From a virus: DNA of 45,166 bases. The notes beneath the pieces were generated by a model, which was not told the origin of the DNA, made no database searches, and saw only the letters and a program-made list of their open reading frames with translations. Below are positions 7,846-43,159 of the stretch, in pieces; position 1 is the stretch's first letter, and the number at the start of each line of letters is the position of its first letter. The position numbers and the translations under genes were made by a program. The DNA is taken from IMG/VR virus record IMGVR_UViG_3300006099_000022. The stretch is one strand, 5' to 3'.

Positions 7846-9009
7846 TTAATCCAGTCTGATCGCAGATATTTCCGTTTCAATCACTGTGACAGGGCCTCTG
7901 CTTAAAAACTCAAGCCATAAATTATCGGTTGTTGGCAAATATTGAAAAAATGAGTATGTAAATTGTGTGTCCATCTCATCGGGGCATTTTATAGCTGTGT
8001 AATAAGACTGCAATGCCATGTTATTATTATCATTACGCACATGTACACACACGGAATTTGGCTGTGAAAATGGGAGTTTGCCATGTGCAACTATCATGTA
8101 TTGCCCCGGCGGCACAGCGATTTTGCGTGTGCCTTGTATCCACTGATCTGCTATAGTGGTAACAGACTCAACTCCCGACCAATATTCAGCCTTGCGTGCC
8201 ATAAAGTCTTTTAAATATTTTACTTGACCAGTTGCATTGTCAATTTCTATGAATTGTAGATAGGGCTGGTTGGGTAAACAGTTCCATTGGAGTCTACGCG
8301 TTATCCCTTCTGTGACGGAGGAACGATATGCATCAACCCAAAGCCAGCCGTCATCTCCCGAATAAAGGCGCATACCATATTGCCCGCTTGGGCTTTGCGT
8401 AGCTATTATGCGCCCTTCGAATGTATCCTGGTCAAAGCCTGGGTTTGCAAGATATTTATTTGTCCATTTGCCATTGGCAGTTTTTTTGCCTACTGTAACG
8501 GCGCCATCGGCATAAAAGGAAAGCATCTGAATAGTACCATCGGGGCGATCAACAATAAATGAGGCTGTTTCTCCATTTCCTTCTTGTTCAACTTTTGTAA
8601 CAACCCTTGAATTATTGTATTGGTAATATGGAAGCTTTTTAGTTAAATCACTATTTAGCGCAGTAACCTGATCCCCGAGTGTCTTACCCATGGCAGCGTC
8701 CAGCGCTGCCACACCAGGATTTGTTGTGAGGGCGTTATTTACCAGGTCGGACTTTTTCAATGCCTGGCCCTCTAACCCTTTGATGACATCAACAGCGCTA
8801 TTCATAAGCTGCGTCACTCGCATAATAGCCTGTTCGCTTTTGTTTAAGTTGGCCGCTTCCAGATACGGCTCCTCATCATCAACATAATTTGTTGGCACAT
8901 ACTCCTCGATCTTCGCCAAAGAATCAGCCAGTGCACGTACCACAGTGTCCGAAATAGGCATCGGGGCTGCGGCGGTATCTTCTGATAATGTTGTTTTTTC
9001 TTTTTCCAT
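7846..9009 (-). CDS. Tail fibre / receptor-binding protein, currently expressed form
   Basis: A 387-aa ORF. The constant N-terminus (aa 1-122) ends in ALNSDL at the repeat, and the variable C-terminus is aa 123-387. It is the last large gene of the tail module. Confidence 0.7.
   Translation of the reverse strand: MEKEKTTLSEDTAAAPMPISDTVVRALADSLAKIEEYVPTNYVDDEEPYLEAANLNKSEQAIMRVTQLMNSAVDVIKGLEGQALKKSDLVNNALTTNPGVAALDAAMGKTLGDQVTALNSDLTKKLPYYQYNNSRVVTKVEQEGNGETASFIVDRPDGTIQMLSFYADGAVTVGKKTANGKWTNKYLANPGFDQDTFEGRIIATQSPSGQYGMRLYSGDDGWLWVDAYRSSVTEGITRRLQWNCLPNQPYLQFIEIDNATGQVKYLKDFMARKAEYWSGVESVTTIADQWIQGTRKIAVPPGQYMIVAHGKLPFSQPNSVCVHVRNDNNNMALQSYYTAIKCPDEMDTQFTYSFFQYLPTTDNLWLEFLSRGPVTVIETEISAIRLD
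8644..8663. repeat. Right arm of the 20-bp inverted repeat, inside the tail-fibre gene (codons 117-122)
   Basis: TAAATCACTATTTAGCGCAG is the reverse complement of 7187-7206. Confidence 0.95.
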
Positions 9010-9020
9010 GTCTTGCCTCC

Positions 9021-9920
9021 TTATGTAAATTCTATGGAATCTATAGTTACATAAAGCTGATCTATCTGCACTGCAATAATGAGATAAAGATATATTTCTC
9101 TGGAATATGTAGATAAATCCACTTCATTTACATAAGAATATTCTCCATTTGGATCAGCTTTCATTGTTCTGCTTGTCGAAAAAATTTTATTATTATCGTT
9201 AAGATCACTTTCTGTGTTACTTGAACTAATTGTTTGCGTGTATCCAGAAATTTTCATGCTTGCACGTTCAATCGTAGAATAATCATTTGATATTTTCCCT
9301 GAAATAGTTAATTTGTTTTTTGTGGTAATATCAATAGGAAGATTGAACATTAAGCAATATCTATTTTCTCGGGAATCTGAATTCCCCCAAAATGTCATAT
9401 CTTTTTTGCCATATTGTGGTTCATTCACGTATGAACTGTATGAAAATTTAAACGCCGTGATTCCTTGCCCTGGCGCAAACGTCCCCTTGTAATAGAACGT
9501 ATTTGGATTCGTCACAATATATCCTTCCCATGTTCCGGGCCCTACGCCGCCAACATACTCCCCCTTCTTGATATTCTCCGGCCGCAAGTTGGCAATCGGG
9601 CTTAAAATAATGTTCCCGCCCATATATTTGTCTTTCGTTTGCAGCGTAATGGTCTTGCTTGTAGGAGTTACTCTCTGCTCTCCAAGGACTGGAATCGACT
9701 GCCGCACGCTCCCTCCTGAATAAAATCCGGCCGGTATTTTATATGTCTCATTGATCGTCATGTAATGGTTTAATTCTCCCTTATCCGGGATCGTTCCCTG
9801 CTGGATTTCTTCACTGCCGCTGCCGTAAAACTTTTTAGGAGAGACAACATCTCCTGCGACCGCCGTCAACCCTTCCGTATCAATAGAGCCTCCCGACATA
9901 TTGATAAGACATTCTCCCAA
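9021..9920 (-). CDS. Tail fibre-associated protein, long paralog
   Basis: A TTG start at 9920 is supported by N-terminal alignment with the upstream paralog (GECLINMSGGSIDTEGLTA against AECLILKAGSKLDDSELSA) and by a GGGGG RBS. The paralogs share FYGSGS...INETY...NLRPE.IKKG. Confidence 0.6.
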   Translation of the reverse strand: MGECLINMSGGSIDTEGLTAVAGDVVSPKKFYGSGSEEIQQGTIPDKGELNHYMTINETYKIPAGFYSGGSVRQSIPVLGEQRVTPTSKTITLQTKDKYMGGNIILSPIANLRPENIKKGEYVGGVGPGTWEGYIVTNPNTFYYKGTFAPGQGITAFKFSYSSYVNEPQYGKKDMTFWGNSDSRENRYCLMFNLPIDITTKNKLTISGKISNDYSTIERASMKISGYTQTISSSNTESDLNDNNKIFSTSRTMKADPNGEYSYVNEVDLSTYSREIYLYLIIAVQIDQLYVTIDSIEFT

Positions 9921-21907: not shown

Positions 21908-22546
21908 TTATCCTTTCCTGAATAATGAGATATTCTCGGCAATCTTGGCCTGCCTCTCTGACGGGTCCTTAATCGCCATAATATCTGCCTTTGTCATGCT
22001 TCCGGGCGGTGTCTGCTGCCCTCTCGGAGCCGTAAACCTCGCCGCGTTCTGCTGCGCCTGCTGCTGTGCTTCGTCCACAAATGCAGAGGCGTCCTTTTCT
22101 TTCATTTGGGAGATCAGGTCATTCAGTCCTAAGATTTTGCCGTCCTTTAGCTTCAGTCCGGCATCCTTGATATCTGCCATGACGGCCTTTTTGGCCGCCT
22201 CGCTGGAAAACTTCACGCTATCCAGGGCCATTTTTAGAGCGTCCGCAAAGTCCCTCTCATAGAGTTTTGCGTCCCGGTCCTTCTCGGCGTCCTCGGCCTT
22301 CTTTTTGTACTCTGCAAGTTGTGCCTGTACCTGTGCTGGGTTGATTCCCTCAAAGCCCTTTAAGGTTTCCTCTGCGGCCTCGGCCTTTTCTTTCCAGGTA
22401 TCCCGGTCAGATTCCAATTTAGAAATCGCCTTGTTGTGTTCGGCGGTGTTTTTGTAGTGCTCTGACAGGGCCTTCTTGACGTCCGCCTGTTTGTCTGCGG
22501 GAATCTCAATCCCAAATGCTTTCAAGGTATCAATAAGTTTCTGCAT
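21908..22546 (-). CDS. Scaffolding protein
   Basis: A 212-aa ORF that is highly charged (K/E/A-rich) and coiled-coil. It lies upstream of the capsid gene. Confidence 0.75.
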   Translation of the reverse strand: MQKLIDTLKAFGIEIPADKQADVKKALSEHYKNTAEHNKAISKLESDRDTWKEKAEAAEETLKGFEGINPAQVQAQLAEYKKKAEDAEKDRDAKLYERDFADALKMALDSVKFSSEAAKKAVMADIKDAGLKLKDGKILGLNDLISQMKEKDASAFVDEAQQQAQQNAARFTAPRGQQTPPGSMTKADIMAIKDPSERQAKIAENISLFRKG

Positions 22547-22622
22547 AGTTATCCTCCTGGTCGTGTTTATTGACCTGCCGCCGCAGGTATGGATTAAGCC
22601 GGATTGACCTCCGGCGGGGTAG

Positions 22623-22736
22623 TTGGCAAGGTTGGAATCGAACCAACATATTAGGCATACTATAGCCGCGGAGATTTGCGCTCCTTTTCGTTTCGGTTGG
22701 CTCCCTACTCCGGCTCTACCATTAAGCTACTCGCCA
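22623..22736 (-). tRNA. tRNA-like gene of atypical length (about 113 nt); possibly a class II Leu(CAA)-like tRNA with an extra insertion of about 27 nt
   Basis: The acceptor stem is TGGCGAG/CTTGCCA. The D-arm is GCTT-AATGGTA-GAGC. The T-arm is a perfect GTTGG-TTCGATT-CCAAC. The only 5-7-5 hairpin in between is (A)GGAG-CGCAAAT-CTCC(G), which has G rather than U at position 33. Confidence 0.45.
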
Positions 22737-22905
22737 TCATGAAATGCCTATATTTTGCGATTTTCGCTTAGATTGTCACGTCGTTTGTGCCGCTTACACT
22801 GTCGCTTCCAGTAGCCGTTCTCACACAAATGCAGTTTTCAGCGAACATTTTTATTCTTTGTGGGGAGTCTGCCACGCCCACATCAGCCGGGAGCGAACCG
22901 GCAAC

Positions 22906-22961
22906 TGACACACAGACGGAATTGAACCGCATTTTAAACCTTCCGCTAAGGCTGTGTGTCA
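22906..22961 (-). ncRNA. tRNA-like minihelix lacking an anticodon arm
   Basis: A 10-bp closing stem TGACACACAG/CTGTGTGTCA encloses the hairpin CCTT-AGCGG-AAGG and a T-arm-like GCGG-TTCAATT-CCGT. Confidence 0.35.
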
Positions 22962-23048
22962 CTAAGAAAGAAGGTCAGAATATAGAAAAAGCCAGGCACG
23001 CCGCATTTCTGTGGTATGTCTGGCTCTGCGTCAAGCGTCTGGCTCTAC

Positions 23049-23228
23049 TTATATTTTTAATTCAGGCGCATCAGAAAGACGCGCTTCCCCTTTTTTAAAA
23101 TCCATTACAAAGTTATTTTTACAGATCGGGCAGAACACCGGAAATCTTACTGCAACGGTATCCGATCTGATTTTCGTTCGGGTTTTATTGTGGCAGATTG
23201 GGCAATATACCCAGTTGTCTTTTACCAT
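23049..23228 (-). CDS. Cysteine-rich KTR-domain protein (59 aa, below the ORF-track cutoff)
   Basis: The translation is MVKDNWVYCPICHNKTRTKIRSDTVAVRFPVFCPICKNNFVMDF.... An AAGGAG RBS is present. The CPxC..KTR...FP.FCP.CK pattern is characteristic of the family. Confidence 0.7.
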   Translation of the reverse strand: MVKDNWVYCPICHNKTRTKIRSDTVAVRFPVFCPICKNNFVMDFKKGEARLSDAPELKI

Positions 23229-23431
23229 ATCATTCTCCTTTTAAAAGCATTGATACCGCAGGAAGCGCTTCACATTTGTTCCTGTCTATGTTTACATTCA
23301 GTGCCGTTTGGTCTTGCCTTATGCCGCGCCTAATTCTCAATGCTTTGTGCAATTATATTTTATCATAAATTAAAGAATAAAGTGGTGACACATATAAGGC
23401 CAAAGCGGCAGGTTTCCCCGCCGCCCTTTCA

Positions 23432-41712: not shown

Positions 41713-42558
41713 TCACCTCTCCGGTGTACTCCAGGGGAGTCCCGGATCCTCCTCATCGGGAGGTACAGTCCCGGGATACGGCCCCTTGTCCGGCTTTGCC
41801 TTGAAAATCTCCATTGCATTTTTAAACTGTGCAATGGTAAGCTCGTGAATGTCCGATACCTTGTAATTCTTTAATAAACTGTTCAGCCCGATCCCAGTTC
41901 GCTTCATCTCCATGTACAGTGTGTTGATATGGACGGAATCGACACGCACCTGATTGGGATCGGTCTCAAATTGGGCGGCTGGTCCGGGCTGTCCGGCGCT
42001 GCCCTCTGCGGTCCCCTTACCCATACAATAGACCGTCCTTTTCGCTTCGTTCCCGATCAACAGCCGATTAATTGCGTTCTCGCTGTCATATCCGATCTCC
42101 TGGACATGAAAGCGTTCGTAGCAGGTATATTTTTTCTTTCCGCGATCGTCTAGGGCTTTTATCCTGCATGCGTCTTTGGAAATCCAGATGAAGGGGGCGG
42201 TGTACAACTCGCGCCCAATCCCCCAGTTGAAGCAAGCCCTTTTAAAGCTGTCCGAAGCCTGTCCCTTTTCTTTTTCTGTATAGCTCTCGGTCCCTACGTC
42301 CTGTTTAGATACCCATTCCCCCGTCTCCGGGTTCCGGATCGACACGGTACAATAGAGCCGGTCCCCGATGAGCTGATGGGAGCGGGACCAGTTATAGGGC
42401 CCCACGCTCTCATCTAAAAGGTTTTGATCGACCCGGGCGTTTTTATATAAAAGGAGCGAGATGCCGCTCTCCTTTACCATGTTGATCCGGCATTCGATCT
42501 CGTTTGCCTTCAACAGGCGGAAGTTAAACGGCTGCCTGTCCTTCTGGTTCTCCTCCAT
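41713..42558 (-). CDS. Rad52/Sak-type single-strand annealing protein
   Basis: The signature is KGQASDSFKRACFNWGIGRELY. Confidence 0.65.
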   Translation of the reverse strand: MEENQKDRQPFNFRLLKANEIECRINMVKESGISLLLYKNARVDQNLLDESVGPYNWSRSHQLIGDRLYCTVSIRNPETGEWVSKQDVGTESYTEKEKGQASDSFKRACFNWGIGRELYTAPFIWISKDACRIKALDDRGKKKYTCYERFHVQEIGYDSENAINRLLIGNEAKRTVYCMGKGTAEGSAGQPGPAAQFETDPNQVRVDSVHINTLYMEMKRTGIGLNSLLKNYKVSDIHELTIAQFKNAMEIFKAKPDKGPYPGTVPPDEEDPGLPWSTPER

Positions 42559-43159
42559 CGTCGGCTCCTTTCCCCTCTATCACGCGGGACGCCCACATAT
42601 CTGCCATATGTAAGAGCAGATACAGCGGGGTCTCCTTCCCCTGGATCTCATACTTAAACGGCCCATACATGCCATTGTGCATCAGGATCGCCCAGTTCTC
42701 ATCTTCTGCCAAATGGATATACCGATTTAAAATCTGGATCGAACGGATTTCATGATCTATGTATAAAAGCTCCGGATTCCCTATATATGGCTTGCTCGTG
42801 GATTGATACGGTTCTGGATTCGGATTGGCCTTCGTCGCCCGCCCTTTTAGCATGTTTGGGATATATCCGGGCTTGCCAAACTGCCCGGCTTTCCCCAGGT
42901 CATGAAGCAATGCGCAGATGGCAACGCTTTCGGCCGGTATCTCCGGATAAAGCATGGTACGCAGCCTCTCTGCGAGGCAGAATACATTCAGGCTATGCTC
43001 TGCAAGCCCTCCCTCATATGCAAGGTGATACTGCGTTGAGCAAGGAGATGTATAAAATCCATAATCGGACATGAATTTCAACAGCTTCTCCATTCCCTCC
43101 CTGCCTGTTTTTAACAGTATTTCCTCGATTTGTTTCCTCACTTCCTGAACATCTTTCAT
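42524..43159 (-). CDS. HD-domain phosphohydrolase
   Basis: The motifs are EHSLNV and ALLHDLGK. Confidence 0.75.
   Translation of the reverse strand: MKDVQEVRKQIEEILLKTGREGMEKLLKFMSDYGFYTSPCSTQYHLAYEGGLAEHSLNVFCLAERLRTMLYPEIPAESVAICALLHDLGKAGQFGKPGYIPNMLKGRATKANPNPEPYQSTSKPYIGNPELLYIDHEIRSIQILNRYIHLAEDENWAILMHNGMYGPFKYEIQGKETPLYLLLHMADMWASRVIEGKGADDGGEPEGQAAV

Follow-up and report, generated by a model that had tools for sequence, protein, structure and literature searches.

Analysis of IMG/VR virus record IMGVR_UViG_3300006099_000022 (45,166 nucleotides [nt] of DNA, the whole of which is called the window here), a temperate gut phage or prophage of 45 kb whose genes lie on the minus strand, revealed that the gene-free stretch between a Cys-rich KTR protein gene and the capsid scaffolding protein gene is a row of conserved RNA elements. 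In the order of transcription, these are the terminator hairpin of the KTR gene, a degenerate RAGATH-21-like element (b), a 140-nt motif (c), an over-long transfer RNA (tRNA)-shaped gene (a), and a conserved leader of the scaffold messenger RNA (mRNA). Homologues of (a), (b), and (c) all occur elsewhere, so none of the three is due to chance. Gene (a) belongs to a discrete family derived from tRNA and sits in a hypervariable tRNA slot ahead of the scaffold gene. The reading that we favor, and to which we give about an even chance of being correct, is that the stretch is an RNA-gene cluster on the strand of the late genes, cut from the late transcript by host tRNA-processing enzymes, with gene (a) acting through its central module and not by decoding. 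All features given by window coordinates below lie on the minus strand.

Gene (a) is 114 nt long and occupies 22623-22736. A sensitive Infernal/Rfam search of 1 kb placed the tRNA model RF00005 exactly at these coordinates (41.3 bits against a threshold of 29, expectation value [E] of 3.9e-7, model positions 1-71), in agreement with an earlier note, made from the letters alone, that had described an over-long tRNA-like gene with intact acceptor stem, D arm, and T arm at this place. The 7-bp acceptor stem, the D arm, and the T arm with its GUUCGAUU-type loop all fit the model, and all pairs in the window copy are standard, while a 61-nt block replaces the 18-nt anticodon arm. The canonical 5-bp anticodon stem, which would start right after position 26 and carry a 7-nt loop containing U33 and purine 37, is absent. 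The T arm (GUUGG-UUCGAUU-CCAAC, 22631-22647) is identical to that of the tRNA-like gene in the slot of locus L224 (loci are designated by L numbers). It is preceded by an extra, variable-arm-like hairpin (GGC-UAUAGUAU-GCC, 22654-22667), all three pairs of which are invariant in the over-long family, and by the anticodon-like hairpin GGAG-CGCAAAU-CUCC (22670-22684). Ahead of the latter lies the extra segment of ~27 nt that the earlier note had also pointed out, which is purine rich (GGGAGCC...GGAGCG) and spans 22679-22705 according to the boundaries set by ARAGORN with option -i. In the window copy, this segment visibly resembles GUAGAGCCGGAG, a likeness that relatives do not share. In default mode, ARAGORN reported no tRNA anywhere in the window, and Rfam at gathering thresholds gave zero matches over the whole 45 kb and missed gene (a), probably because of its speed filters. 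Only the intron mode of ARAGORN called the gene, as an 88-nt tRNA-Leu(caa) with a 27-nt insert after position 31. No tool thus called an ordinary tRNA, an explanation by coordinates or indels does not apply, and relatives carry compensatory changes, so the structure stands as the earlier note had it.

The central module of gene (a) consists of the 27-nt purine-rich insert with its GGAG repeats, the hairpin GGAG-YGCAAAU-CUCC, and the extra arm. Within it, the strand CUCC(G) can pair either with CGGAG beside the D arm (22708-22712), an outer stem that encloses a 34-nt loop, or with GGAG at the end of the insert, an inner hairpin with the loop CGCAAAU. The two resulting cloverleaf variants are ~1 kcal/mol apart (-26.7 versus -25.7). 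The loop CGCAAAU of the window copy has G33, and the loop UACAAAU left by a 27-nt excision has A33; no 7-nt loop obtainable from the window copy has U33. Judged from these loops, gene (a) as it stands is probably non-decoding, because no reading of the loop has U33. In a shifted register, the loop of the over-long family reads U33-GCA-A37, which is Cys-like, and the window copy has C at the U33 position.

The main rival, which we regard as possible but unlikely, is that gene (a) is a decoding tRNA with a mini-intron of 25 to 27 nt removed by host proteins. After excision, the CGGAG/CUCCG stem would carry a 7-nt loop reading Leu (CAA) or, in the shifted register, Cys (U33-GCA-A37). This is the structure drawn by ARAGORN in intron mode, in which the tRNA-Leu(caa) is complete, its 5-bp anticodon stem is perfect, and its extra arm is long. 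Moreover, RNAalifold picks the outer stem, an A-to-G change in L098 is tolerated there as a G-U pair, and with the tRNA arms enforced the outer-stem fold is within ~1 kcal/mol of the unconstrained fold. When the insert is cut one base later, the loop is UGCAAAU in all members of the family, and the discriminator is U73 in 6 of the 9 variants, as expected from the identity rule of tRNA-Cys. However, the Cys register requires a U-U pair and is broken in the window copy (C33, A73), and no 27-nt excision yields a loop with U33. Group I introns in the anticodon loop of bacterial tRNAs are ~200 nt or longer and have a P1-P9 catalytic core; 27 nt is far below this self-splicing size, and no intron family matched in Rfam at E up to 10. 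Inspection showed neither a bulge-helix-bulge nor a hairpin in the insert, both junction regions being purine rich and non-complementary, and the insert lies at position 31/32-33, compared with 37/38 for the protein-spliced introns of archaea and eukaryotes. Also against a mini-intron, the pattern tried for an insert-less allele gave 0 matches in IMG/VR, and Pfam found no RNA ligase, kinase, or splicing endonuclease among 30 non-structural phage open reading frames (ORFs). The sole match among these 30 ORFs that could conceivably act on RNA ends is an early-region ORF with an HD phosphohydrolase domain (42524-43159).

A further point in favor of a mini-intron comes from Lak megaphages, for which tRNA introns of this kind have been proposed and in which small "enigmatic" introns, as yet unexplained, interrupt tRNA genes (Devoto et al. 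2019, PMC6784885). As in the window, these are phage tRNA genes missed by bacterial tRNA finders, with a short conserved insert in the anticodon region that falls outside the Rfam intron classes (PMC6784885). For the Lak inserts, however, the limits came from alignments of insert-bearing with insert-less alleles (PMC6784885), whereas no insert-less allele was found here. In addition, the insert of gene (a) lies 5' of the anticodon-like triplet, is purine rich and unstructured, and leaves no U33, and the setting differs, with a Firmicute host and a 45-kb temperate phage.

Two other candidates for the insert were rejected. The region at 22674-22709 resembles the dnaX frameshift signal of Escherichia coli (AGGGAGC AACC..AAA..AAAAG), and the corresponding Rfam score of 12.2 bits (E of 9.2) was treated as chance. 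A mini-tmRNA (transfer-messenger RNA) or short-ORF reading fails since there is no G3:U70 (pair 3:70 is G-C in all copies) and no coding signature; by our own reading of the alignment, the open frame GCN AAC ... UAG has 1 synonymous versus 4 non-synonymous variable sites.

To trace relatives of gene (a), we used BLAST, degenerate patterns, and a covariance model. BLAST against the fetched loci revealed a copy with 90% identity in L007, placed differently from that in the window, 2.5 kb ahead of the L007 scaffold gene, and degenerate patterns retrieved copies in 7 IMG/VR stretches and 4 metagenome contigs. Exact patterns from the insert and the 5' half of the window copy had no IMG/VR match; the window copy is the most divergent member, and degenerate ones were needed. 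The family comprises 9 distinct sequences in 12 copies including the window, all on phage or metagenome contigs; all 9 variants are 114 to 115 nt long, and the insert is present in every one of the 12 copies. The covariance model built from the family (R1) scored 11 sites at 138 to 149 bits and the window at 137.8 bits, compared with at most 42 bits for ordinary tRNAs. Two surveys of bacterial genomes yielded no member, one with R1 in 151 sampled genomes of the family to which the L088 genome belongs and one with a 3-mismatch pattern in 401 sampled bacterial genomes; as samples, they do not prove that the family is absent there. In the cloverleaf of the family, 99.1% of the cells are paired, and four pairs are changed on both sides (two each in the acceptor and T stems), all four of which split the window from the rest. 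The insert measures 27 to 28 nt in all 9 variants; 5 of its first 10 to 12 positions vary, and its 3' half (AAACGAAAAGGAG) is invariant. Overall, conservation is higher in the central region than in the acceptor and T arms, and the arms of the window copy diverge from the family more than its center does, which fits an exchange of central modules between tRNA frames through recombination at the conserved sequences of the D loop and T loop. Such an exchange implies that the four "compensatory" changes may stem from one swap rather than from four selected events. The T arm common to the window and L224, together with the conservation pattern, likewise fits a central module moving between tRNA frames.

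Members of the family occur in at least four flanking contexts. In L102 and L104, the over-long gene lies 0.9 to 1 kb upstream of the PF06810 gene, so that two further members are also upstream of a PF06810 scaffold gene, in support of the favored reading. Between the over-long gene and the scaffold gene of L102, a phage-encoded full-length tmRNA was observed (8772-9078, 92.5 bits). In L007, two genes lie downstream of the over-long one: another tRNA-like gene, which is compound, and a gene for an HNH/NUMOD4 endonuclease. This compound gene (L007:546-651, also in L097 and L103) is 106 nt long and has one acceptor stem around two T-arm-like hairpins and a duplicated UUGGGAGCACG; the HNH/NUMOD4 homing-endonuclease gene (686-1200) comes directly after it.

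In the window, gene (a) occupies a fixed slot ~76 nt upstream of the scaffold start codon, and in relatives a tRNA gene ends 74 to 78 nt before this codon. A survey of 82 loci yielded 56 distinct slot sequences. ARAGORN called 45 of the 56 as canonical tRNAs and two in intron mode only, and left nine uncalled. The canonical occupants carry ten anticodons (Asn-GUU, Cys-GCA, Gln-CUG, Gln-UUG, Ile-UAU, Leu-UAA, Met-CAU, Thr-UGU, Tyr-GUA, and Val-UAC), and an intact T arm stands at a constant distance of 75 to 78 nt from the start codon in all 56 sequences. Several occupants share one common frame (UGGAAUGUAGCUCAGUGGUAGAGC ... GCAGGUUCGAUUCCUGCC) and differ in their anticodon arms, and the over-long family uses a close variant of this frame. 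A second non-standard module, a covarying 5-bp stem around the conserved 15-nt loop GAUAGCUAAUCACUC, was found in two different, otherwise ordinary tRNA frames (L007:2842-2924, L224, and L092:2843-2924) and marks a second family of slot genes. Among these gut phages, which are otherwise alike, the slot (L003-L082, ~74 to 190 nt upstream of the start codon) has the look of a tRNA cassette whose content can be swapped. If the readings hold, it amounts to a natural swap experiment, with ten anticodons and several non-standard tRNA-shaped genes set in similar surroundings, in which one can ask what a temperate phage gains from its one or two tRNAs, be it codon supply, counter-defence, or transcript processing. 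In seven loci (L017, L018, L022, L040, L046, L048, and L053), the slot holds a tRNA-like gene of ~70 nt (GUGGAAC...GUUCCGC) with acceptor stem and T arm intact, in which one 6-bp palindromic stem (CUAUAG) replaces the D and anticodon arms; ARAGORN leaves it uncalled.

On the favored reading, host RNase P and RNase Z would recognize the intact acceptor/T-arm half of gene (a) and excise the RNA from the late transcript. None of the slot tRNA or tRNA-like genes encodes CCA, and in Firmicutes the 3' end of a tRNA whose gene lacks CCA is typically cut by RNase Z. The same cuts may also free the neighboring motif (c) and create the 5' end of the scaffold-capsid mRNA. Once released, the RNA would work by way of its central module, e.g., as a binder or decoy built on a tRNA scaffold, rather than by ordinary decoding. 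In favor of this reading count the tRNA shape of gene (a), the discrete family with its conserved insert, the fixed slot, the missing U33, the lack of an encoded CCA, and the tRNAs that adjoin many copies of motif (c). Several observations weigh against it. Folded without constraints, the window copy does not form a cloverleaf at minimum energy, and the z-score of this fold against shuffled sequences is only -1.38. All four compensatory changes fall on one branch (the window versus the rest), and frame recombination without selection for pairing could have produced them. The family is shallow (95% mean column identity), so the conservation of the insert may only reflect recent spread. Finally, canonical tRNAs make up 45 of the 56 occupants, indicating that the normal cargo of the slot is a decoder; this favors decoding after splicing and also counts for the mini-intron.

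It is also conceivable, although rather improbable, that gene (a) is a non-functional by-product, i.e., a chimera or decaying tRNA that arose from cassette recombination and is tolerated by the slot. The slot, a hot spot of recombination, contains many aberrant occupants (nine of the 56 are uncalled by ARAGORN, and lengths of 67 to 92 nt occur), an HNH homing endonuclease gene adjoins tRNA-like genes in L007, the window copy has C at the U33 position and a different discriminator base, and the fold of gene (a) is no more stable than that of shuffled sequence. On the other hand, the family is sharply set apart from ordinary tRNAs, and all stems are intact in all copies, whereas decay would be expected to add indels and stem mismatches. 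The earlier note had considered a decayed phage tRNA here; this is unlikely, because the same insert, with its length and most of its sequence, is kept in 9 variants and at least four genomic contexts.

A cis-acting role alone appears very improbable. In that case, gene (a) would be a tRNA-shaped cutting signal that parts the scaffold-capsid mRNA from the upstream RNA, the content of its anticodon domain being irrelevant. The distance between T arm and start codon is indeed constant in all 56 variants whatever the anticodon domain, the downstream leader is conserved, and other phages have other structured RNAs at the same position (GP20-b and RAGATH-21; PMC10690425). However, the over-long gene also occurs 0.9 to 2.5 kb from scaffold genes, beside unrelated genes, and its central module is more conserved than its arms, which is unexpected for an irrelevant domain.

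Several known systems bear comparison. In the bacteriophage T4, a tRNA cluster is co-transcribed with small stable RNAs and associated with Seg homing endonucleases; tRNAs can also "punctuate" transcripts. The phages studied here similarly combine tRNAs and non-tRNA stable RNAs in one array, with predicted release by tRNA-processing enzymes, and L007 has a homing endonuclease gene; unlike the T4 cluster, theirs is a slot of one or two genes in the head-morphogenesis module of a temperate phage, with occupants swapped between relatives. We tentatively put forward, with rather low confidence, that the tRNA shape serves as a carrier of conserved non-anticodon modules (the 27-nt GGAG-rich insert and the 15-nt loop) on interchangeable frames, with the tRNA-flanked RNA class (c) released alongside by host RNase P and RNase Z, or else that the insert is a new protein-dependent bacterial tRNA intron. 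To our knowledge, neither mechanism has as yet been described for bacteria or their phages.

Structured RNAs ahead of GP20 scaffold genes have been noted before. GP20-a, GP20-b, and other candidate RNAs were found upstream of such genes (Weinberg et al. 2017, as cited in PMC10690425). The citing paper, which has 8,495 candidate RNAs, reports that a candidate structured RNA is often present immediately ahead of a GP20 gene and that many phage RNAs look tRNA-like (PMC10690425). The window agrees with this picture in having structured RNA directly upstream of a PF06810 (GP20) gene, and GP20-b occurs at the same position in L088. It differs in that no match to GP20-a or GP20-b (RF03003) was obtained in 22300-23300 at E up to 10 and in that the leader sequence is different.

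Element (c) is a conserved structured RNA motif of 140 nt at 22763-22902, delimited with RNAalifold on alignment A2. The invariant 14-mer GUGACAAUCUAAGC was found in more than 115 IMG/VR stretches among the matches listed, from which 43 distinct full copies were extracted, and 28 of them were aligned for RNAalifold. Three helices, P1 (22886-22902), P2 (22877-22882 with 22859-22864), and the long-range P3 (22840-22845 with 22763-22768), enclose a variable domain and are joined by the near-invariant junctions GAAUGACAAUG, GCUGAAAACUGC, and GUGACAAUCUAAGC. In these helices, 98.3% of the cells are paired, and 12 of the 19 pairs are changed on both sides, values that were matched by 0 of 500 shuffles; slid controls pair in only 31 to 44% of cells. 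No Rfam family reaches its threshold for the motif, either in the window or in L084. Element (c) is homologous to the sequence that follows RAGATH-21 or a tRNA in L084, L087, and L093. Among the 42 copies with enough flanking sequence, a canonical tRNA ends 5 to 9 nt upstream in 23 and starts 9 to 12 nt downstream in 9; in other copies, a ribosome-binding site and an ORF come next. If the readings hold, the motif is a candidate for a new class of RNA: its covariation is strong and its junctions are invariant, as is usual for a ribozyme or for an RNA that binds a ligand or protein, and its neighborhood has already been linked to self-cleaving ribozymes via RAGATH motifs. Compared with GOLLD and ROOL, which are large phage-associated RNAs often found beside tRNAs (PMC5737381), element (c) is likewise a phage-borne structured RNA beside tRNA genes, but it is far smaller (100 to 176 nt), matches no Rfam family, and has three helices around invariant junctions.

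The hairpin GCCGG-UUCGCUC-CCGGC and the stem UGUGGG/CCCACA, which the earlier note had read as T-arm-like and as possible remains of decayed tRNAs, are both present, the hairpin lying one base from where it had been placed (22886-22902). This interpretation is not supported, as the hairpin is P1 and the stem P2 of a separate conserved motif; the T-loop look of UUCGCUC is not conserved, because the P1 loop is usually UAGCG or UCGCU. Two further candidates were dismissed. A hammerhead reading of CUGAUG misfits the core, many copies have ACACUG or ACAAUG, and no Rfam ribozyme matches; a promoter reading of GUGACA...CAAAAU is ruled out by the flanking P3 helix, which covaries at the RNA level. Directly downstream of (c) in six loci (L113, L123, L155, L182, L200, and L201), there is a conserved RNA of ~95 nt. 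Its 7-bp terminal stem (GCGGCAU/AUGCCGC) has A and CCA after it, resembling the 3' end of a tRNA, but its interior is not tRNA-like.

Element (b), at 22907-22960, consists of a 10-bp outer stem, the junction CCUUA, and the terminal hairpin GCGG-UUCAAUU-CCGU. The 10-bp stem enclosing this hairpin had been predicted from the sequence and is indeed there, whereas its interpretation as a T arm within an acceptor/T minihelix does not hold, since the hairpin corresponds to the terminal hairpin of the RAGATH-21 model. In a cmscan comparison with RF03097, element (b) aligns end to end (model positions 1-76) with 15 bits (E of 1.7 in a search of 106 nt) against a gathering score of 70.3 bits. It shares the outer stem, the CCUUA junction, and the terminal hairpin and lacks the inner hairpin and the small 3-bp hairpin of the model; on account of the end-to-end alignment on the one hand and the missing inner hairpin and low score on the other, it is named RAGATH-21-like and not counted as a member of RF03097. 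True RAGATH-21 copies (77 to 83 bits) occupy the same relative place upstream of the scaffold gene in L084, L087, L088, and L093, where the terminator-like hairpin and U run seen in the window also come before them, so that element (b) and the true copies of relatives alike lie between the KTR-gene terminator and the scaffold gene. L001 has a copy of (b) that is 88% identical. Joining (b) and (c) into one degenerate tRNA, as ARAGORN does at a threshold of 70 to 80%, was rejected in view of their homologies to RAGATH-21 and to the copies of motif (c). Just upstream of the element lies a pyrimidine tract (22962-22980) whose CCUUC is complementary to GAAGG of the motif, with CCUCC versus GGAGG in relatives (L001, L084, L087, L088, and L093), which suggests an extra pairing or an alternative fold.

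The stretch as a whole is RNA and not protein coding, as had been supposed from its lack of a convincing ORF. The ORFs that overlap it are all short on the minus strand (31 to 64 aa), with one of 103 aa on the plus strand, and what relatives keep there is RNA structure. Default tRNA finders and Rfam are silent on the window, yet it holds at least three conserved RNA elements; if the readings hold, phage annotation thus misses such RNA genes. Upstream, the stretch is flanked by the gene of the Cys-rich KTR protein (23049-23228, 59 aa; Pfam PF14205 Cys_rich_KTR, E of 2.3e-18). Just 3' of this gene, sequence inspection revealed a long terminator-like hairpin (AGCCAGAC...GCCUGGC) followed by a U run (22986-23026), with homologous stretches in L087, L088, and L090; a simple terminator scan did not call it because its loop is too long. 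Downstream lies the capsid scaffolding protein gene (21908-22546; Pfam PF06810, E of 2.6e-21). The scaffold protein has 2789 relatives in public data and is encoded at more than 575 loci in IMG/VR and at 13 in bacterial genomes, mostly of Lachnospiraceae, where the nearest relatives of the window phage are found; an identical protein is encoded on 11 contigs. The leader that links the tRNA slot to the start codon of the scaffold gene (22547-22622) contains the hairpins GCCGG...CCGGC and CCUGC-GGCGG-CAGG and a ribosome-binding site. It matches neither GP20-a nor GP20-b and is ~81% identical across relatives, and its first stem covaries among loci (GCCAG/CUGGC, GCCCG/CGGGC, and GGCAG/CUGCC).

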